In this document: piece by piece, positions 2,346 to 9,361 of the stretch
Numbering within the stretch: the stretch's first letter is position 1
Layout of the letters: each line of letters opens with the position of its first letter
Source of the DNA: Deltaproteobacteria bacterium
GTDB taxonomy: Bacteria; Desulfobacterota; Syntrophobacteria; BM002
Direction of reading: 5' to 3'
DNA length: 64,000 bases
NCBI GenBank assembly: GCA_020353155.1
Contig: CP070689.1
Span: 2,476,315-2,540,314, forward strand
Notes under the pieces: generated by a model
Told to the model about the DNA's origin: nothing
Database searches by the model: none
Seen by the model: only the letters and a program-made list of their open reading frames with translations
Made by a program: the position numbers and the translations under genes

Positions 2346-3881
2346 CTATGTCTCCTGACTCCTGTTTGTCCAATCTTTTAACAATCGAGCGGCATGATCA
2401 AGGGCTTCCTGGCGAGTGCTGATACGCCCCTCCCACTGCAGTTCAGCCAGAGTGGCTAGAAGTTTTCCAACCATAGGACCAGGTGAAAGATCCAAATAAT
2501 TAATGAGATCATAGCCGCTTACTATAGAAGGTTCCATTTCCCTAGGCTTTAGTTGGTTGTAGTAGAAATCTAGCCAGTTCCGTATTTGCTGGCCCAGTGG
2601 TTGAAGATCAACTTCAACTGAGGCAGATCTTTGCGATGCCCTGTAGTCTGAGGCAAAAAGCAGGAGGAGCGGCCAAAAAAGGTCAGGTCCCAGTCTAAAA
2701 AAACGGGACAGGGCTCGGGTTGAAGTGTGAGCGAGGCTGAAGAGATGGATCGGGCGCATATGCTGGCGAACAAGCTGACTGACAAAGTTTATTTCTTTGT
2801 TGCTCAAGCGAAGACGGAAGCACAGGGAAGCAGCCAACTTTGATCCTACAACTTCGTGACCGTAGAAGTGATTTACACCGTTTTTGCCCACGGATCTGCA
2901 AAGGGGCTTGCCTATGTCATGGAGCAAAACACCTAGTTTAAGTGAAGTCTGTCGCGATCTTTGCCCTGCAAGCTCTTGTGCGAGAATGGCCGCCGCCTGG
3001 TCAGCGTAGTTTCCCAGCAAATATTTGATATTCTTTAGAAAGAACTCCAATGATTCCAACGCTGAGAGGCTATGCTGCCAAACACTGTGATGATGAGAAT
3101 CATGTTGCTGTAAATTACGCATGTCCTCGCACTCTGGCAGCAGCAGTCTCAATATGCCGTCTTCATCCAACATTCTGAGGATTGAAACACAACTTGTGGC
3201 TTTCAGAATCAGCATCAGTTCATCCCTGATACGCTCCACCGCTACCTGACTTAAACCGTGACGGGCTTTGAGTATGCTTTTACGGGTCTGAGCATCGAGG
3301 ATAAGACCGTAAGCTGAAGCTAAACGGTACGCTCTCAAAATGCGGAGAGGATCATCTGAGAGTGAGTTTTCCGAACAAGTACGCAATCTACCTGCCTCAA
3401 GATCCTTAATCCCACCCAAAGGATCGAGGAGATGGACTTCTCTATGGGCCAACCAGGTCGACATATCTAAGGCGAGAGAATTTATGGTGAAGTCACGCTG
3501 ACAAAGGTCATCGAAGATTGATGGGCCTCTCAGTGGTGAAAGGTCAATCACGAAGGACTCTTCTATTTTATCTGTGTGAACAGAAGATATGAGCCGAATC
3601 GTTCCGAACTTCCGATCTATAAGTACCGGGCTGCTACCGGTAAGTCTAGCTACTTCCCTGGCAAGTTCGGGAGATTGATTACTTACGAAGTCTGCATCCT
3701 TACAGCTGTTGCCCAGCAACGTGTCCCGGAGGAATCCGCCCACCAAATAGAGCTGATACTCCTCCCTTTGCGCAACCTCCAGTAAGGCTGAAACTATTCT
3801 GGAGCTCCCAATGAGGTTCTCAATGGAGCTCTCGAGTTTGCTGAGCTGAGTATGAAGGAAATTGGTCATAGGGAGATCCAA
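2346..3881 (-). CDS. cca: tRNA nucleotidyltransferase/poly(A) polymerase-family enzyme with HD domain (CCA-adding-enzyme-like)
   Basis: 511-aa ORF. Head-domain motifs are LYLVGGFLRDTLLG and RDFTINSLA. HD-domain motifs are LLHDIGKP and YGHEVVG. The track start is a TTG at 3881 and the first ATG is at 3869. Confidence 0.75.
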   Translation of the reverse strand: MDLPMTNFLHTQLSKLESSIENLIGSSRIVSALLEVAQREEYQLYLVGGFLRDTLLGNSCKDADFVSNQSPELAREVARLTGSSPVLIDRKFGTIRLISSVHTDKIEESFVIDLSPLRGPSIFDDLCQRDFTINSLALDMSTWLAHREVHLLDPLGGIKDLEAGRLRTCSENSLSDDPLRILRAYRLASAYGLILDAQTRKSILKARHGLSQVAVERIRDELMLILKATSCVSILRMLDEDGILRLLLPECEDMRNLQQHDSHHHSVWQHSLSALESLEFFLKNIKYLLGNYADQAAAILAQELAGQRSRQTSLKLGVLLHDIGKPLCRSVGKNGVNHFYGHEVVGSKLAASLCFRLRLSNKEINFVSQLVRQHMRPIHLFSLAHTSTRALSRFFRLGPDLFWPLLLLFASDYRASQRSASVEVDLQPLGQQIRNWLDFYYNQLKPREMEPSIVSGYDLINYLDLSPGPMVGKLLATLAELQWEGRISTRQEALDHAARLLKDWTNRSQET

Positions 3882-3976: not shown

Positions 3977-4248
3977 CATTACTGTCTAACAAAGTATTTA
4001 TACAGTTGGACAGTATAACTGATTATAAATGCCCATAAAGGGTTATATACATAATATTAATAGTAATTAAACAGTCTAAAAGCCATAATGCCAATAGTGG
4101 ATCAAGCTTATCTATGCAGGTTATTTTGAAGGAATGGGTTAGCTGTTTTAGACAGTATAAGTTATTAATATGATAGGTAGTTTGCGTTTTTAGTAATTTT
4201 TTTTAATTTTTTTCTTGACATTTATACAATATATTTGTACTGTCTAAA
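3977..4248. promoter_or_regulatory. AT-rich divergent control region with five copies of a TTATACTGTCTAAA-like motif
   Basis: Copies: 4147-4160 tttagacagtataa; 4235-4248 ttgtactgtctaaa (13/14 match to the reverse complement of the former, so inverted); 3977-3990 cattactgtctaac; 4006-4019 ttggacagtataac; and a weaker one at 4069-4081. A TTGACA lies at 4215-4220 just before the last copy. Confidence 0.5.
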
Positions 4249-4291
4249 TCATCCATCGCACATGATAACCATAATCAATCAAGGATAACTT

Positions 4292-5803
4292 TTGAGCAGT
4301 CATTTAAACAGTAAAACACTTTCCAGCAAGGAGCTAATTGCTAAGACAGGAATATCTAGGGCCACGCTCAACAATTACATCGCTCTGAATTTAATTCCTT
4401 CTCCTTCGGTACGGCGACCAGAAGAACCTGGTGGCCCGACCAAAATTGGATATTTCCCCTTGTGGGCGGTGGAGAGGATTGAAAAAATTCAAGAGATGAA
4501 AGCTTCCGGAATGAGAATGGCAGAAATTGCCATGTTTTTTACGGATGAGGAGAGCCCTGAGGAGAAGGTGAGGCCACGAGAAGGTTCTGTCGATTTCACC
4601 TATCAATCAATAGAGCGCATAGTTTTTCCTGCTATTCTGGTTAACTCAAGTTGGGAGATCATTTGGATTAACCAAACTGCCGAGAAGGTATTTTTTCAAG
4701 AGTCTGTTCGCGAAATTCCTACTGCAGCCAACCGTAATATATTGCGACTTTTCCTCGAGAAAGGGCTGCCGGGACGTTTTAAAAACTGGAAAGAAATACT
4801 GACCCTGCATTTGCGTCTGGCTAAGCGAGATTTGTCTGAGGACCGGGTCGAACAGATCTGTCGGCAAGTAGAAAGTTGTCCACTGGAAGAACTAAGGGAA
4901 TTGTGGCGTGAGGCTAAACCCTTACAGGAACGCCCCATTACCCAGCAAGACTTAGTTTTAAGGCCCTATAAAGGCAAGAATACCAGGCATACCCTTTTTT
5001 CCAGTGATTTTCGTGAGGGTACGCTACTGCTTTATACTCCAGTTAATATGCAGTTGGACCAGATCTTGAACCTTCTTATGGGTAGAGAGAAACTGGTCAA
5101 AGCTTTACTTTCAAGGAGAATTCCCTCTCTCACATCATTGTGTATTTTAGCCGGTCGATTAGAGTCGAGCCTTCATCTTCGCACTGCCCTACCCCCGCAC
5201 GAGTATTTTGACTTACTAAACCAAGTCATTCTAGCTTCTCATCAATGCTTCAAAGATCACGGTGGTACGCCAGGCCGTTCAATTCAAGAAGGCGTGGTGT
5301 GTTTCTTTCTTTCAGCACCTGACTCACCGAGGGAATACCTTCACTCAGCTATACAATGCGCTCAGGCTCTCAAACAGATTATCACAACTCTGGACAAGCG
5401 CTGGAAATACAAAAAGGTATGGAAAAACACTTTGCAGATGAATATGTCCATTCACTGTGGTGAAGAGTGGCTGGGAACCATACCGTCATCACTGGCCTTC
5501 GATTTTACCGTTATGGGCGAAAGCCTGATAGAAACGGTTAAGCTCAGTGAGTTTGCTGAGGCTGGCTCTATCTGGGCTAGCAAGAGAGTAATTGAAAACA
5601 TGTCGCCAGCAGACCGCCAGCGAGTTGAGTTCGGTGTTCGGCTGGGTACCGGCCGAGAGCGGTTTGTTAGCCCAGGTATTTACTCTCAAGTCAGGGAACT
5701 GCTCAGCACTGACGAATTGCAGCAGAGAGGACTGAAGGAGATAAGTAACCTTGCAGTCACCGAGATAATCAACGTCCACCCACCGGAAGAGCAAGATTTC
5801 TAA
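4292..5803 (+). CDS. MerR-type HTH regulator fused to a PAS-like region and a degenerate class III nucleotidyl-cyclase-homology domain
   Basis: 503 aa, TTG start with AAGGA 7 nt upstream. N-terminal HTH: LSSKELIAKTGISRATLNNYIALNLIPSP. C-terminal cyclase-like block: SLCILAGRLESS...HGGTPGRSIQEGVVCFFLS...MSIHCGEEWLGTIP...FTVMGESLIETVKLSEF. Gly and Glu sit where the two metal-binding Asp are expected. Confidence 0.55.
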   Translation: MSSHLNSKTLSSKELIAKTGISRATLNNYIALNLIPSPSVRRPEEPGGPTKIGYFPLWAVERIEKIQEMKASGMRMAEIAMFFTDEESPEEKVRPREGSVDFTYQSIERIVFPAILVNSSWEIIWINQTAEKVFFQESVREIPTAANRNILRLFLEKGLPGRFKNWKEILTLHLRLAKRDLSEDRVEQICRQVESCPLEELRELWREAKPLQERPITQQDLVLRPYKGKNTRHTLFSSDFREGTLLLYTPVNMQLDQILNLLMGREKLVKALLSRRIPSLTSLCILAGRLESSLHLRTALPPHEYFDLLNQVILASHQCFKDHGGTPGRSIQEGVVCFFLSAPDSPREYLHSAIQCAQALKQIITTLDKRWKYKKVWKNTLQMNMSIHCGEEWLGTIPSSLAFDFTVMGESLIETVKLSEFAEAGSIWASKRVIENMSPADRQRVEFGVRLGTGRERFVSPGIYSQVRELLSTDELQQRGLKEISNLAVTEIINVHPPEEQDF

Positions 5804-5835: not shown

Positions 5836-7815
5836 GTGATAACAAACAACTATACAGATAATGTGGGTAAAGCATTGAGGTCCAGAGCCAGCTTTTTTTT
5901 CAAGCTCATTGCCAGGACCATGGGGTTCGGTGAACAGAGGGTATACTACGGTCTAGTAATGGCCTTTGGCCTCCTCTTCGTCCTTCCCAGCCTCGGGTTT
6001 ATCAATTTTGCCTTCAAGTATGACTTTTTTGCTGACCGCCAGATAACATACTACTTTCTCTCCATTCTTGTTTTTTCCTATCTGGGGTTTTTCATACTTC
6101 GCTCCCATTCAGATAGAGTCCGTAGTATTTCGGAAGACTTGGAACAGTCCCTTCCCGACATCCCGCGGGAATCTGCAGGAAAGCAAACCAGTGAGCTAAA
6201 TCGCATTGTCTTTTCCTTTCATCAGTTGATCGAAAGGTTGGAGAAAAACAATCAAGCACTTGAATCACGTGCCGGACAGCTTCGATCTCTTGGGGAGGTG
6301 ATGGAGTTTACTCCTGCCAGGCCCAATTCCACCCGTCTGTTGAAATTGGGTTTGCAGAAGGCTTGCGAAGGAATCGGTGCCGAACGTGGGTGGGTATTAT
6401 TGCTGGATGAAAGCCGTCGACACCACTTCAGGGTCGCTTGTGAGGTCGATACAAATGGCAGCTTCCAAAGGCGAGAAGGATGTAAGATTGCTTTTGCCCA
6501 CACCATGGCAAGGGAAGCGGTCACCCAACGCAGTCCAGTATTCCTCGCCTCGCCTTTCTGGCAGGAAGAGCAGAATGAGCCAGATGGGCAGATGATGGAA
6601 GGCGAGGGAACCGCGCTTGCTGTGCCTCTCATAACGGGTAGAGATGTCTTTGGCGTCATGTGTCTCGAAAATAAGAAAGGAAGCTTAACTTTTTCAGCCG
6701 CAGATCTCGATTATGTCCTACCCTTGGCCGCTTTTCTCTCCTACCGCTATGAAAATATAAGGCTTAAGAAGCTAGTTGCCGCCCAAACCAGTCAATACCA
6801 ATGTCTCTCAGCCTTCAACAATATTTGCAACAAGGGACTGGTGCAAGGAAAAGTTTTTCAACTGTTAACCAAAGAATTGCGGAATTTTATACCGGCGACT
6901 CTCTCCTTTCTAGCTCTTTTTGAAAACGATCGAGAACAATTAAAGCTACTAGAAATTGCCTCCATAGAGCCAATTTCTCTTCGTCGAGGTATGACTTTGC
7001 CTCTCAGGCAGAGTCTCTTCAAATTGGTGTTGGAGGAAAACAGGGAGATATATCGAAAGGACGTTGCCGCGACAGTTCACCCCCTGGAAGCGCGCTGGTT
7101 CCGAGAGTTGGGTATCAACTCGTGTTACCTGTCTCCCTTTCGTATTCAAGGAGTCAACGCTGGAATTTTGTTTGTCGGAACCGACTCAAAAAGAGGTTTT
7201 ACCGATCCACAGCGAGTCATCCTGCAGCAAGCACGTGATTACCTCGGATTGGCTATGCACAACCAGATGCTTCTCGAGCAGTTGGATGAGCAAAGTCGGG
7301 AACTGGAAGCTTTCAACAGAATAGGAAGTGTGGTGACTTCTTCTCTATTTGATTTAGACGACGTTTTGGATAAGGTCGGAACCCTCATCGGCCAAATGAT
7401 AACAGTTGAGGCCGGGGCCATTTATCTTCAGGAAAAGGATGGTCTAGCTGTCAAAAAAAGCTTTGGAACTAGAGGTGACAGAATTGAGCCATTCCGGATG
7501 AAAAGAATCGAAGGAATATGTGGCTATGTCATGTCTCGGGGAGAATCGGTAATCGTGAGAGATGCCTCACAAAACCCCCACCTGTCTTCAATGGTCAGAG
7601 CTTTCGGCGGAACAAAAGCACGCTCAGTCCTTTGTGTGCCCATGGTGGTTGGCGGAGAAGTGATAGGTGCAATTCATATGTGGAACAAAGAACATGGCCC
7701 CTTTACGGCCCATGACAATAAATTGATGAAGTCAGTGGCTGCCAGCCTGGCAACAGCAGTTGCAAGTGCCAGGCTCAGTCGGATGTGTCAGGATTTTTCC
7801 ATAAGTGAGGTTTAA
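5836..7815 (+). CDS. membrane-anchored multi-GAF sensor protein without recognisable output domain
   Basis: Two N-terminal hydrophobic helices (YYGLVMAFGLLFVLPSLGFINFAF; ITYYFLSILVFSYLGFFIL) and a coiled linker. These are followed by three GAF-like repeats (GWVLLLDESRRHHFRVA; ALAVPLITGRDVFGVMCLENK; SVLCVPMVVGGEVIGAIHMWNK). Start uncertain: GTG at 5836 or ATG at 5920. Confidence 0.6.
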   Translation: MITNNYTDNVGKALRSRASFFFKLIARTMGFGEQRVYYGLVMAFGLLFVLPSLGFINFAFKYDFFADRQITYYFLSILVFSYLGFFILRSHSDRVRSISEDLEQSLPDIPRESAGKQTSELNRIVFSFHQLIERLEKNNQALESRAGQLRSLGEVMEFTPARPNSTRLLKLGLQKACEGIGAERGWVLLLDESRRHHFRVACEVDTNGSFQRREGCKIAFAHTMAREAVTQRSPVFLASPFWQEEQNEPDGQMMEGEGTALAVPLITGRDVFGVMCLENKKGSLTFSAADLDYVLPLAAFLSYRYENIRLKKLVAAQTSQYQCLSAFNNICNKGLVQGKVFQLLTKELRNFIPATLSFLALFENDREQLKLLEIASIEPISLRRGMTLPLRQSLFKLVLEENREIYRKDVAATVHPLEARWFRELGINSCYLSPFRIQGVNAGILFVGTDSKRGFTDPQRVILQQARDYLGLAMHNQMLLEQLDEQSRELEAFNRIGSVVTSSLFDLDDVLDKVGTLIGQMITVEAGAIYLQEKDGLAVKKSFGTRGDRIEPFRMKRIEGICGYVMSRGESVIVRDASQNPHLSSMVRAFGGTKARSVLCVPMVVGGEVIGAIHMWNKEHGPFTAHDNKLMKSVAASLATAVASARLSRMCQDFSISEV

Positions 7816-7902: not shown

Positions 7903-8343
7903 ATGCAGAACTCCACCCTTGAATCACCTAGAGCTCATATTTTGCTTGTCGAACGAAATCGAGGTGCTCTGGCGCTCCTTGAAACAATGCTCTGTTGGAA
8001 AGGTTATCGGGTAACCACGGTGGTAGATGGGCTAGACGGTTTGGAGAAATTTCGTCACGGACAGTTCAATCTCATTCTCACCAATCTTTCTACTCCTAGA
8101 ATATCAGGATGGGAGTTGGGCCGTATAGTTAAAAACAGCCCTGCTTCGGTGCCTGTGGCCCTCATTACCGGTCTGGATTTCGGCGCTAGACCAGACCACT
8201 CCCCCTTCGATGCGATTATTGCGGAACCCTTCCCCTTTGATGAATTAGAGTGCATGGTGAATTCGCTGATTGAATGTCGGAACGGAGGGACTCTAGAGCC
8301 AAACGCTGTAGGGAGCTTGCCACTGGAGGAAGGCAGGTTATGA
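7903..8343 (+). CDS. stand-alone pseudo-receiver (REC-fold protein lacking phospho-acceptor residues)
   Basis: 146 aa, RBS GGGAGG 5 nt before the ATG. It has the REC topology, but beta1 is ILLVERN (no DD pair), beta3 is LILTNLSTP (Asn at the phospho-Asp position) and beta5 is AIIAEPF (Glu at the conserved Lys position). Confidence 0.65.
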   Translation: MQNSTLESPRAHILLVERNRGALALLETMLCWKGYRVTTVVDGLDGLEKFRHGQFNLILTNLSTPRISGWELGRIVKNSPASVPVALITGLDFGARPDHSPFDAIIAEPFPFDELECMVNSLIECRNGGTLEPNAVGSLPLEEGRL

Positions 8344-9183
8344 TCGCTCCTTGGCACGGCTTTTCAGATATGAGATCAGCGATTCCTCAACTTCCTGTAT
8401 TTCCCTTCGAGCAGGCAGATTACTGCAAAGCCTCTCAACATAATGTCTTTCTAATACCTGGCGGCATGACATTGGCAAATTGAGGTCAAATACCCACCCG
8501 AGTCGTAACAATATCATGTCGTTTCGATTACGCACCGAGCTAAAGTCCGGGACCTTTCTCTCCATAAGTTCAGTCACTATTCCATGGTTGAAAGAATTGC
8601 CAGTAGGTATTAAACCCTCTAAGGTTTCTACTAAATTGCCATGTCCTTCCAGTTCGGCGATGACCAAGCGCCATATGTCCAACTTATCTGCATCCCGGAG
8701 AAGTCGGGAAAAAAAGTCTTGCCGCGGCGAGAGACTCAGAGGTAATTTTCGCAGATTGTGATGGCGAATTGCTACTTGGATAAGCTCCCGTTCATCTGCC
8801 GTTAGGTCCATTAAGATCTCGTGCTGGGATATTACTTCAAGACCTAGCAGGGCGTGATCCTGGGAAGCACTATCAATGAAAGTGGAATAATTCTTCCATT
8901 GAGGAAAGCGGCCTATATCGTGAAACAGAGCAGCTGTCTCAGCTAGTAATAGATCCTCATCGTTCAGACCGGATTCTCGACCCAGAAGGACTATTTCTTT
9001 GCAGGTCCGTTTCGTATGTTGCTCTTTCAGGAGGATAGGCCTCACCCCATCTCCGGGCAGATCGTAGTATAGGGCAACGTAATTCTTGAACCAATTTTTG
9101 AAGTAATCCAGCTTGGCTTGTTGCATGATAATGGAATCCAACCAGCCCCTAAATCTCCCTTTTATCCCCTCCTGCCCGCGCAA
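8338..9183 (-). CDS. HD-domain metal-dependent phosphohydrolase
   Basis: 281 aa with ALFHDIGRFPQ, AIRHHNL and LRDADKLDIW (H...HD...D pattern). The 3' end overlaps the convergent pseudo-receiver gene by 6 nt. Start uncertain: 9183 or ATG at 9126. Confidence 0.65.
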   Translation of the reverse strand: MRGQEGIKGRFRGWLDSIIMQQAKLDYFKNWFKNYVALYYDLPGDGVRPILLKEQHTKRTCKEIVLLGRESGLNDEDLLLAETAALFHDIGRFPQWKNYSTFIDSASQDHALLGLEVISQHEILMDLTADERELIQVAIRHHNLRKLPLSLSPRQDFFSRLLRDADKLDIWRLVIAELEGHGNLVETLEGLIPTGNSFNHGIVTELMERKVPDFSSVRNRNDMILLRLGWVFDLNLPMSCRQVLERHYVERLCSNLPARREIQEVEESLISYLKSRAKERS

Positions 9184-9342: not shown

Positions 9343-9361
9343 GATTTCGAATTTCGAAATC
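9343..9361. promoter_or_regulatory. perfect 19-bp dyad GATTTCGAA-T-TTCGAAATC (candidate operator)
   Basis: Read directly from the sequence. Both 9-bp arms are exact reverse complements around a single central base. The dyad lies 37 bp upstream of the ATG at 9398 and is made of GATTTCG-family heptamer words. Confidence 0.5.

Follow-up and report, generated by a model that had tools for sequence, protein, structure and literature searches.

A predicted MerR-type DNA-binding protein with a PAS domain and a degenerate class III cyclase-homology domain in Desulfobacterota, and its candidate operator

Introduction

Why should a nucleotidyl cyclase be tethered to DNA, and what does the cyclase fold add after catalysis has been lost? 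These questions are raised by a gene encoding a 503-aa protein in the window, that is, the whole stretch of 64,000 nt of deltaproteobacterial DNA analysed here. The source organism of the protein is an uncultured MAG. The first-pass annotation, made from the sequence alone, had described an N-terminal MerR-like helix-turn-helix (HTH) and a C-terminal cyclase-like domain with substituted catalytic residues, and had proposed that the cyclase fold was recruited by a transcription factor for sensing, dimerisation or nucleotide binding.

Pseudo-enzyme GGDEF/EAL domains are central to c-di-GMP signalling. To our knowledge, there are very few bacterial pseudo-enzyme examples of the class III cyclase fold. 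Our literature search for bacterial class III cyclases that are dead or joined to a MerR domain found none except the preprint on AdvA, which is considered in the last section.

Gene and domain organization

4292..5803, + strand: gene for the 503-aa protein (MerR-type HTH, PAS and degenerate cyclase-homology domain), TTG start, stop included
4281..4285, + strand: ribosome-binding site AAGGA, 6 nt 5' of the TTG start

The open reading frame at 4292–5803 is genuine, with its TTG start and ribosome-binding site, and the 503-aa product is composed of three domains: a MerR-type winged HTH (residues 9–86), an MmyB-like PAS fold (residues 109–252) and, at the C-terminus, a cyclase-homology domain of class III (CHD; residues 280–495). 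Orthologues are 75–94% identical and cover 100% of the protein length. The AF2 model of the whole protein is of moderate confidence (pLDDT 74, pTM 0.48). No model matched in an NCBIfam search with the 503-aa protein, for which the databases hold automatic names only, and an Rfam scan of the locus gave no match.

MerR-type HTH

4316..4549, + strand: MerR-type winged HTH, residues 9–86 (Pfam MerR_1, PDB profile matches, AF2 helices)
4550..4609, + strand: variable acidic linker, residues 87–106 (pLDDT <50; lowest orthologue identity)

The Pfam MerR_1 model matched residues 11–83 with an E-value of 4e-4 and a score of 20.9 bits, just below the cut-off of 21.6 bits, and the same model detected 35 of 36 family members at E ≤ 0.01 (best E 2.4e-6). 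An HTH profile searched against the PDB found MtaN (1jbg, E 1.5e-3) and MerR (4ua1, E 1.7e-3). These matches support the N-terminal MerR-like HTH of the first-pass annotation. In the AF2 model, the HTH helices lie at residues 12–19, 23–31, 58–71 and 76–86, and the wing carries an insertion of approximately eight residues. The recognition helix ISRATLNNYI (residues 21–30) is nearly invariant: SRATLNNYI was found without a change in 89 of the 113 HTH-bearing representatives, which had been clustered at 50% identity and collected without any word index.

The long dimerisation helix of canonical MerR proteins has its place taken here by the linker at residues 87–106. No long coiled-coil helix follows the HTH in the AF2 model, in which this disordered linker leads to the PAS domain. 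As modelled, the 503-aa protein is not a canonical MerR regulator, lacking the long coiled-coil helix and having a promoter spacer of 17–18 bp (see below).

PAS domain and linker helices

4616..5047, + strand: PAS fold carrying a helical insert, resembling MmyB-like ligand-binding domains, residues 109–252 (Pfam, domain model, Foldseek)
5054..5113, + strand: two linker helices before the CHD, residues 255–274 (AF2, orthologue comparison)

The middle domain had been overlooked in the first-pass annotation. It was recognized by Pfam MLTR_LBD (PF17765) at residues 112–211 with an E-value of 6e-6 and 26.8 bits, against a cut-off of 26.3 bits, and this model matched 30 of 36 family members. The domain modelled alone reached a pLDDT of 91.7, and Foldseek with this model returned PAS domains only, of which 3pxp had the best coverage (query TM 0.65), at weak E-values (2.5e-3 to 8e-3). 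A PAS profile searched against PDB sequences gave nothing significant.

Between the PAS domain and the CHD, the two helices at residues 255–274 form the best-conserved segment of the protein, with 96–100% orthologue identity and a dN/dS of 0.01–0.04. We infer that they are a signal-transducing linker like those that precede cyclase domains.

The C-terminal domain is a class III cyclase homologue

5129..5776, + strand: class III CHD, catalytically degenerate, residues 280–495 (sequence and structure comparison)

The Pfam Guanylate_cyc model (PF00211) did not match the 503-aa protein even at E ≤ 1, nor did a whole-genome PF00211 scan pick it up. A profile search without a significant cyclase match is formally the ground for refutation that the first-pass annotation had named, and taken by itself, the silence of Pfam and NCBIfam on this single protein would have refuted the cyclase homology, but that reading was rejected on the basis of a PDB search, a family-wide scan and a structure prediction. 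A phmmer search of PDB sequences aligned residues 285–438 to CyaB (3r5g, E 2.6e-5), Cya2 (2w01, E 4e-5) and CyaC (1wc0, E 3e-4), and PF00211 matched 14 of 36 family members at E ≤ 0.01. Moreover, the AF2 model resembled CyaC and CyaB in Foldseek with E-values of 9e-11 to 2e-10 and target TM scores of 0.79–0.81 (CyaC 1wc1, E 9e-11 and TM 0.79; CyaB 3r5g, TM 0.81). The CHD is homologous to class III cyclases though it lies outside the threshold of the Pfam model, and the alignment by eye in the first-pass annotation had identified the C-terminal domain correctly.

Replacement of catalytic residues

5156..5158, + strand: Arg289 codon, position of metal-binding Asp 1 (alignments; Arg in 102 of 108 family members)
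5276..5278, + strand: Arg329 codon, position of the substrate-binding Lys (alignments; Arg in 102 of 108)
5288..5290, + strand: Glu333 codon, position of metal-binding Asp 2 (alignments; Glu in 104 of 108)
5507..5509, + strand: Thr406 codon, position of the substrate-pocket Thr/Asp, kept (alignment; Thr in 104 of 108)
5528..5542, + strand: Ile413–Lys417 (IETVK), Ile413 standing for the transition-state Asn and Lys417 for the transition-state Arg (alignments)

Five of the six catalytic residues are replaced in the CHD, and only Thr406 is kept. The register was taken from three independent alignments that agree with each other: HMMER to 2w01, MAFFT with the genome's own true cyclases, and the alignment with canonical relatives. 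The first-pass annotation had read Gly and Glu at the two metal-binding Asp positions. The second reading is upheld as Glu333; the first was one residue off, and Gly288 was rejected in favour of Arg289, where all three alignments place Asp 1. With this shift, alignment to active cyclases confirmed the replacements, including the transition-state region, which reads LIETVKL as had been noted. The Asp 1 position is Lys, Gln, Ser or Cys in those of the 108 members without Arg, and the transition-state Arg position is Lys in 99 of 108. The set of replacements is fixed in 99–104 of 108 family members and present in all 26 Desulfobacterota genome loci, in both of the paralogue clades described below. 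Two further features were dropped as signs of degeneracy: the phosphate-contacting Arg (Ala in the clade of the window protein), at which canonical relatives vary too, and the GFT loop after Asp 1, the divergence of which is family-wide and includes canonical members.

Judged from the sequence, canonical cyclase chemistry by the CHD is very unlikely, because both metal-binding Asp residues and the transition-state Asn/Arg pair are missing. Could the domain nonetheless be an enzyme of non-canonical chemistry, with Glu333 and other residues binding metal, or with a different nucleotidyl-transfer reaction? Glu is able to bind metals, the exchanges of Arg for Lys (Arg329) and of Lys for Arg (Lys417) are conservative, and the CHD is under strong purifying selection. 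These points are set against a cationic Arg at the Asp 1 position in nearly all members, a transition-state Asn position that is hydrophobic and freely variable, and a Pfam cyclase model that misses the 503-aa protein while scoring its canonical relatives well. In the class III cyclases that have been studied, loss of either metal-binding Asp abolishes activity. We therefore regard a non-canonical enzyme as highly improbable.

After redundancy filtering, Arg289, Arg329, Glu333, Thr406 and Lys417 are 88–96% conserved, compared with a CHD median of 80%, which hints at a role beyond that of a scaffold. One such role would be that of a receptor: what was once the active site, at the interface of the CHD dimer, may have been remodelled into a pocket for a small and probably anionic ligand, for instance a nucleotide, a cyclic nucleotide from the five true cyclases of the genome, or bicarbonate or a similar anion. 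The CHD would then be both a scaffold and a second sensor. CyaC and CyaB, which respond to bicarbonate, are class IIIb enzymes; they are also the best structural matches and share the pocket Thr. The fixation of the replacements in both paralogue clades, the five canonical cyclases encoded in the genome, and the triple-GAF protein from the same operon (see below) are likewise in line with such a pocket. However, approximately one-third of CHD columns are equally conserved, so that the pocket positions do not stand out, and the column of the lost Asn is one of the most variable in the CHD (28% conserved). Furthermore, the former catalytic positions are occupied by unrelated residues in other degenerate lineages of the family, which argues for a general retained role rather than a specific pocket, and an Arg289–Glu333 salt bridge could simply fill the lost metal site. 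On balance, a remodelled receptor pocket appears unlikely.

Distribution, selection and descent

The replacements are fixed in one order of Desulfobacterota (Syntrophobacteria-type). The gene was found in 18 of the 22 genomes of this order, including all eight of high quality, usually in two copies. The two paralogues, referred to as clade A and clade B, are 53% identical and have the same recognition helix; the paralogue of the window gene lies at genome positions 1459820–1461286. A decaying gene or pseudogene was rejected at a dN/dS of about 0.05: the CHD and the helices before it are the best-conserved parts of the protein, and the dN/dS of the CHD against orthologues is 0.05–0.07, indicating that the domain is not decaying.

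The same three-domain layout occurs in other Proteobacteria with the full D-K-D-x-N-R set of catalytic residues. Sulfurisoma sediminicola BSN1, Polaromonas and Gallionella are among the hosts of such canonical members. The first-pass annotation had not recognised the architecture as characterised. Our searches, which found no NCBIfam model and no paper, agree with this, but the layout itself is widespread with intact catalytic residues, and by sequence comparison the 503-aa protein is a member of a degenerate sub-clade. In the tree, the clade of the window protein is monophyletic (support 100) and sister to canonical D-K-D-T-N-R proteins (support 98). The tree requires 8–10 changes of catalytic state, and the family has lost catalysis on at least eight occasions, which fits a role of the CHD that outlasts catalysis. 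The 503-aa protein appears to have descended from MerR-PAS-adenylyl cyclases, predicted to be active, with the same operator.

A conserved 10-bp motif overlapping the candidate promoter

2346..3881, − strand: gene of the CCA-adding enzyme/poly(A) polymerase family (cca), divergent, sharing the operator-bearing spacer
3980..3989, − strand: exact operator copy TTAGACAGTA, in the part of the spacer nearer to cca (motif search)
4006..4015, + strand: operator copy TTGGACAGTA, forming an inverted pair with the copy at 3980–3989
4148..4157, + strand: operator copy TTAGACAGTA (exact; motif search)
4215..4243, + strand: candidate promoter TTGACA (4215–4220), 17 nt, TACTGT (4238–4243), recurring in relatives
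4238..4247, − strand: operator copy TTAGACAGTA (exact), overlapping the −10 element; all 13 clade A loci have a conserved copy at −50 to −55

The 10-mer TT(A/G)GACAGTA is clustered upstream of the gene and of its canonical relatives, where it overlaps the promoter. Four exact or near-exact copies are present in the 410-bp spacer between the gene and the divergent cca gene, and a weak partner, TTATACAATA, starts 16 nt upstream of the copy at 4238–4247. In the window, nine matches were counted against 2.5 expected, five of them within or at the edge of the spacer. Across the 3.2-Mb genome, at least three matches per 400 bp cluster nowhere but in the spacer, which holds 4 of the 12 exact copies. 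Among clade A loci, the motif was found in 13 of 13 (68 matches against 0.24 expected), and among canonical relatives in other classes in 46 of 54 (89 matches against 2.06 expected). A regulon search of the genome outside the gene's own spacer gave one weak dyad only (genome positions 2429970–2430007).

The −10-like hexamer of the candidate promoter, TACTGT, is identical to the first 6 nt of the operator copy at 4238–4247. The assignment of this hexamer is weak, as it matches the consensus at 3 of 6 positions, and for this reason a consensus scanner made no call at 4215–4243. Upstream of relatives, the arrangement TTGAC[AT]-17/18 nt-TAYHRT recurs with a spacer of 17 nt (20 times), 18 nt (seven times) or 16 nt (once), and the motif overlaps both the −10 and the −35 elements. 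The motif could be bound by another factor, or its TACTGT core could merely be part of the promoter, but copies that occur in both orientations and without a −35 element argue against the latter. Strong comparative evidence points to the 10-mer, which recurs in different bacterial phyla, as the likely cognate motif of the MerR-PAS-cyclase family.

The motif was absent upstream of the clade B paralogue's own gene, despite the same recognition helix; autoregulation would accordingly not be universal. Since the operator is present in the promoter of clade A alone, both paralogues may converge on it. This distribution bears on a further possibility, namely that the dead CHD pairs with another CHD, either that of the 53%-identical paralogue or that of one of the active cyclases of the genome, as a regulatory and possibly inhibitory subunit linking cAMP synthesis to DNA binding. 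Class III cyclases are dimeric, and heterodimers with one dead site are known from mammalian adenylyl cyclase (C1/C2) and soluble guanylyl cyclase; by analogy, the presence of two paralogues with one recognition helix in most genomes of the order would suit such pairing. A heterodimer of the paralogues cannot rebuild an active site, because both miss the same residues, and the gene shows no linkage to any active cyclase. We consider pairing of this kind improbable.

Neighbouring genes

5836..7815, + strand: triple-GAF protein gene, 33 nt past the regulator stop; three GAF domains, predicted N-terminal hydrophobic segments, no output domain
7903..8343, + strand: third gene, a stand-alone receiver domain with its phospho-acceptor replaced (DD to ER, Asp to Asn, Lys to Glu)

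The triple-GAF gene is kept at the same position in most clade A genomes, and no terminator-like site was found between it and the regulator gene. From this arrangement, the two genes are probably co-transcribed. In every clade A locus of sufficient length, the pseudo-receiver gene either adjoins the regulator gene or is separated from it by the triple-GAF gene only. No conserved partner was detected in the gene context of canonical relatives, which varies.

Proposed mechanism

Based on these observations, we propose that the 503-aa protein is probably an autoregulated one-component transcription factor in which the dead CHD acts in dimerisation or allostery. The winged HTH would bind the copies of TT(A/G)GACAGTA. 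An operator copy overlaps the −10 element of the gene's own promoter. Autoregulation, probably as repression, of the operon of the regulator, triple-GAF and pseudo-receiver genes is the simplest reading; cca may be affected as well. The PAS domain is a likely input for a small ligand, from which signals may pass to the CHD through the highly conserved linker helices. By analogy with class III cyclases, the dead CHD would serve as an obligate dimerisation and allosteric module in substitution for the classical MerR coiled-coil helix, and its dimer would set two HTH domains at the spacing for paired sites. The recruitment of the cyclase fold as a transcription-factor module, as first suggested from the sequence, is supported by the lost catalytic residues, the selection on the CHD, the enrichment of the motif upstream and the conserved recognition helix.

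In a more far-reaching reading, which we hold to be doubtful, the operon would be a signalling chain consisting throughout of ex-catalytic and phospho-relay modules, the remodelled Arg/Arg/Glu/Thr/Lys pocket would recognise a novel small ligand or dock the GAF protein or the pseudo-receiver, and the whole family would be a new class of DNA-bound cyclic-nucleotide enzymes. If this were true, the chain would combine the dead CHD with a membrane triple-GAF protein that has no output domain and a receiver that has lost its acceptor Asp. A pure receptor-type transcription factor would have arisen from a DNA-binding adenylyl cyclase, and a MerR-PAS-cyclase family with one cross-phyla operator would have given up catalysis eight times or more.

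The MerR-PAS-cyclase family is large and uncharacterised. With presumably active and dead members side by side and repeated loss of catalysis, it offers a natural experiment. DNA binding can be tested directly on the conserved 10-bp site, and canonical members from cultured bacteria, such as Sulfurisoma sediminicola BSN1 and isolates of Polaromonas, bring the family within experimental reach.

Comparison with known systems

The closest structural counterparts of the CHD are CyaC of Spirulina platensis (1wc0/1wc1), CyaB of Pseudomonas aeruginosa (3r5g) and the guanylyl cyclase Cya2 (2w01), which share with it the fold of the catalytic domain (E-values of 9e-11 to 3e-9 and target TM scores of 0.75–0.81 in Foldseek), sequence homology over residues 285–438 and the pocket Thr. 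Unlike these enzymes, the 503-aa protein has no metal-binding Asp pair, transition-state Asn or Arg, or substrate-binding Lys, carries an additional N-terminal HTH and PAS domain, and is predicted to be non-catalytic.

The canonical MerR-HTH/PAS/cyclase proteins of Beta-, Alpha- and Gammaproteobacteria and Desulfobulbales share its domain order and length at 31–37% identity, together with the helix SRATLNNYI and an upstream TT(A/G)GACAGTA that overlaps a TTGACA-17/18 nt promoter. They differ in keeping D-K-D-x-N-R and passing the Pfam Guanylate_cyc threshold, and are on these grounds presumably active. Their genes stand alone in variable contexts, whereas the clade of the window protein has a conserved operon with the GAF protein and the pseudo-receiver.

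With MerR, CueR, BmrR and MtaN, the 503-aa protein has in common the MerR-type winged HTH and an operator within or overlapping the core promoter. In contrast to these regulators, its model shows no long antiparallel coiled-coil helix, and its effector part consists of the PAS domain and the CHD. The promoter spacer is 17–18 bp rather than the over-long 19–20 bp of MerR-family regulators, so that activation by DNA untwisting is not indicated.

In the CarH/LitR photoregulators, a MerR-type HTH is fused to a B12-binding sensor/oligomerisation domain. The 503-aa protein resembles the CarH/LitR proteins (PMC9758184, PMC9304148) in design logic only: it lacks a classical coiled coil in the model, would rely on a C-terminal module for oligomerisation and input, and has repeated short sites over the promoter. 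In place of a B12-binding domain, which was absent in a Pfam search of the 503-aa protein, its modules are the PAS domain and the dead cyclase domain. Similarly, the middle PAS ligand-binding domain matches that of the MmyB-like regulators (PF17765; 3pxp, Caur_2278), but these have an Xre-type HTH instead of a MerR-type HTH and no cyclase domain.

Class III cyclase domains and HTH domains also meet on one polypeptide in the Rv0386-type cyclases of Mycobacterium tuberculosis, which consist of a CHD, an ATPase and a C-terminal LuxR-type HTH; Rv0386 is catalytically active. These cyclases differ from the 503-aa protein in domain order, type of HTH and the ATPase module. A survey is available (PMC2447327).

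A cyclase fold kept for a structural or regulatory role without catalysis is also described for AdvA of Acinetobacter baumannii, a membrane cell-division protein without detectable cyclase sequence similarity (PMC13060281). The 503-aa protein differs from AdvA in its detectable cyclase homology, its presumably active sister proteins and its fusion to a DNA-binding domain. It would represent a fold that outlives its catalysis, as does the second, degenerate site in mammalian adenylyl cyclase and in soluble guanylyl cyclase; degenerate GGDEF/EAL domains offer an analogy.

Gene and domain architecture

The regulator is encoded by an intact ORF on the single 3.21-Mb contig (C1) of the window genome, with an AAGGA sequence located six bases 5′ of the start codon:

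window 4292–5803, + strand: regulator gene, 503 aa, TTG start

The nearest homologues were found in MAGs labelled Deltaproteobacteria, Syntrophobacterales, Syntrophobacteria or Desulfobacterota. In the GTDB order of the window, a regulator-type gene was detected in 18 of 22 genomes and in 8/8 high-quality genomes. Two copies are usual, and the second copy in the window genome (C1 1459820–1461286) shares 53% identity with the regulator.

The first-pass annotation had described a MerR-like N-terminus followed by a cyclase-like C-terminus. The Pfam search of the single protein detected MerR_1 at residues 11–83 (E 4e-4; 20.9 bits against a cut-off of 21.6) and, slightly over the cut-off, the PAS-type ligand-binding domain MLTR_LBD at residues 112–211 (E 6e-6), but no Guanylate_cyc even at E≤1. 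The NCBIfam search gave no match, and scanning the entire genome with PF00211 identified five other cyclases but missed the regulator gene. Despite this, the cyclase homology of the C-terminal domain (CHD) is real, as first proposed: residues 285–438 aligned by phmmer with the PDB sequences of CyaB (3r5g, E 2.6e-5), Cya2 (2w01, E 4e-5) and CyaC (1wc0, E 3e-4); PF00211 matched 14 of 36 family members at E≤0.01; and the AlphaFold2 model (pLDDT 74; CHD core 80–92) matched CyaC and CyaB in Foldseek (E 9e-11 to 2e-10, target TM 0.79–0.81). The N-terminal domain profile retrieved MtaN and MerR from the PDB. When residues 105–255 were modelled separately (pLDDT 91.7), PAS domains were the sole structural matches, with the best coverage by the MmyB-like founder structure 3pxp (query TM 0.65). 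A long helix following the HTH was absent from the AlphaFold2 model, in which residues 87–106 form a low-confidence linker.

Replacement and conservation of the catalytic residues

The register of the catalytic positions was concordant in three alignments: HMMER to 2w01, MAFFT with PDB segments and two true cyclases from the same genome, and an alignment that included canonical relatives. Residue frequencies were counted over 108 full-length homologues.

Catalytic positions of class III cyclases and their counterparts in the regulator
Metal Asp1: Arg289 (Arg in 102/108)
Metal Asp2: Glu333 (Glu in 104/108)
Substrate Lys: Arg329 (Arg in 102/108)
Substrate Thr/Asp: Thr406, retained (Thr in 104/108)
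Transition-state Asn: Ile413 (Ile, Val or Met; variable)
Transition-state Arg: Lys417 (Lys in 99/108)

The Gly initially assigned to metal Asp1 was thus off by one residue; the other assignments of the first-pass annotation were correct. Residual, non-canonical catalysis by this domain appears very improbable.

In comparisons of the regulator with ten orthologues, no other large domain is as well conserved as the CHD (81–96% identity), and its dN/dS is 0.04–0.07 where only comparisons with unsaturated dS were counted; the domain is thus not in decay. The two helices preceding it show 89–100% identity. The former active site might have been remodelled into a ligand pocket, as the replacement residues are 88–96% conserved against a domain median of 80%. 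However, one third of the CHD columns match this level of conservation, and variation at the former Asn column is almost unconstrained, so that such a pocket is possible but not strongly indicated.

Repeated loss of catalysis in the family

A family profile searched against 1.84 billion cluster representatives retrieved 202 at E≤1e-30. Proteins of the R-R-E-T-x-K type, to which the regulator belongs, form a tight clade; the next-nearest proteins also have the HTH-PAS-CHD layout, many with the full canonical D-K-D-x-T-N-R set, and degeneration took other, unrelated forms in further lineages. The family also includes HTH-CHD, PAS-CHD and HTH-PAS forms. In species genomes, the set was degenerate in all 26 Desulfobacterota-type loci (49–89% identity) and canonical in all 54 loci at 31–37% identity, the latter from Beta-, Alpha- and Gammaproteobacteria and Desulfobulbales, including Sulfurisoma sediminicola BSN1, Polaromonas and Gallionella. 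Canonical members pass the Pfam cyclase model.

Maximum-likelihood analysis of 62 three-domain proteins placed the window clade on a long stem as a monophyletic group (support 100), and its sister (support 98) was a small group including the canonical proteins P0124 and P0128. The tree requires 8–10 switches of catalytic state, canonical or degenerate. As class III cyclases ancestrally carried the canonical set, this architecture has lost catalysis repeatedly.

Operator motif and recognition helix

The sequence TTAGACAGTA occurred nine times in the window at ≤1 mismatch, against 2.5 expected, with five occurrences within 3980–4313. The spacer between the regulator gene and the divergent cca gene is the only region genome-wide with at least three matches per 400 bp, and contains four of the genome's 12 exact copies. 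In clade A (the regulator and its orthologues), the same 10-mer, TT(A/G)GACAGTA, was present upstream in 13/13 orthologues at conserved offsets of approximately −307, −281, −218, −145 and −51, totalling 68 matches against 0.24 expected from the remainder of the loci. It was also detected upstream of 46 of the 54 canonical relatives from other classes (89 matches against 2.06 expected), and of just 1/13 clade B paralogues (the second copy per genome).

The proximal copy overlaps TACTGT, the −10-like hexamer of a conserved promoter with TTGACA at a spacing of 17/18 nt, and in many relatives a second half-site covers the −35, giving TTGACAGT...TACTGTCTAA. In canonical loci L044–L097 (Beta-, Alpha- and Gammaproteobacteria), TT(A/G)GACAGTA sites lie in pairs over the −35 and −10 of the gene's own promoter, often 17–18 bp from start to start. 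Judged from sequence, such pairing seems to represent a family-wide, apparently undescribed autoregulatory design.

Of 113 HTH-bearing representatives collected by HMMER free of word seeding, 89 have the exact recognition helix SRATLNNYI. The absence of seeding is important, since the genome loci were themselves obtained via the helix peptide and are biased for it. DNA binding and self-regulation by the regulator are argued mainly from the fact that helix and site are conserved together across phyla.

Just one other inverted near-consensus pair exists in the genome, at C1:2429970–2430007, approximately 46 kb before the window (TATTGTCTAA, 18 nt, TTAGACATTA). It lies just past a histidine-kinase-like ORF and 34 nt upstream of a gene for a 481-aa response regulator, and may be either a second target or a chance occurrence. 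The terminator scan also gave a perfect 19-bp dyad, GATTTCGAAATTCGAAATC (window 9343–9361), which lies upstream of the gene for ADP-ribosylglycohydrolase and bears no relation to the operator motif.

Gene context

The clade A order is cca (−), regulator, triple-GAF protein, receiver-only protein, HD protein (−), ADP-ribosylglycohydrolase and enoyl-CoA hydratase. It is kept in at least 13 genomes, three of which (L009, L013 and L027) lack the GAF gene. No terminator-like site was detected by the scan between the three + strand genes, the latter two being:

window 5836–7815, + strand: triple-GAF gene, 659 aa, predicted N-terminal hydrophobic segments, three GAF domains, no output domain
window 7903–8343, + strand: pseudo-receiver gene, stand-alone 146-aa receiver domain

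The triple-GAF gene begins 33 nt past the regulator stop codon, a position conserved in most clade A genomes; NK...F...D-like motifs are present in two of its GAF domains. In the pseudo-receiver, the acidic pair is ER, the phospho-acceptor Asp is Asn and the conserved Lys is Glu, and the same changes were observed in all orthologous loci with a regulator at least 75% identical. The two deepest loci, L030 and L013, keep the Asp, indicating that the receiver degenerated after operon formation. The 3′ ends of this gene and the convergent HD-domain gene (8338–9183, −) overlap by 6 nt (8338–8343), and the pair is syntenic across all clade A loci.

The clade B paralogue at C1:1459820–1461286 (L007/L012) has the same degenerate pattern as the regulator, but with Cys for Arg at metal Asp1. 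Its recognition helix is the same, and the operator motif is absent upstream. The clade B setting is conserved but unlike that of clade A, beside a convergent cluster. This comprises three small ORFs (97, 67 and 67 aa), a receiver that retains its Asp, a 139-aa HisKA-like protein, an HTH_17 protein and a 214-aa protein, followed by NUDIX and beta-CASP genes; the cluster is also present in four other genomes (L010, L014, L016 and L017). Heteromeric pairing of the regulator CHD with this paralogue or with active cyclases is improbable.

Proposed function and comparison with known systems

Taken together, the best-supported model, which we consider probable, is that the regulator is an autoregulated one-component transcription factor, in which the dead CHD would serve for dimerization and couple allosterically to the PAS sensor. 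It would be a pseudo-enzyme domain within a one-component regulator, and its recognition brings to light a large, testable family. We found no curated family, source annotation or paper on MerR-fused class III cyclases, whether active or dead, in agreement with the initial impression of an uncharacterized architecture. The closest published precedent that we found for a bacterial cyclase fold lacking catalysis is Acinetobacter baumannii AdvA (PMC13060281). With a promoter spacer of 17–18 bp and no coiled coil in the model, the regulator appears to depart from the MerR family in two defining features, and the CarH/LitR design is a closer analogy than classical MerR.
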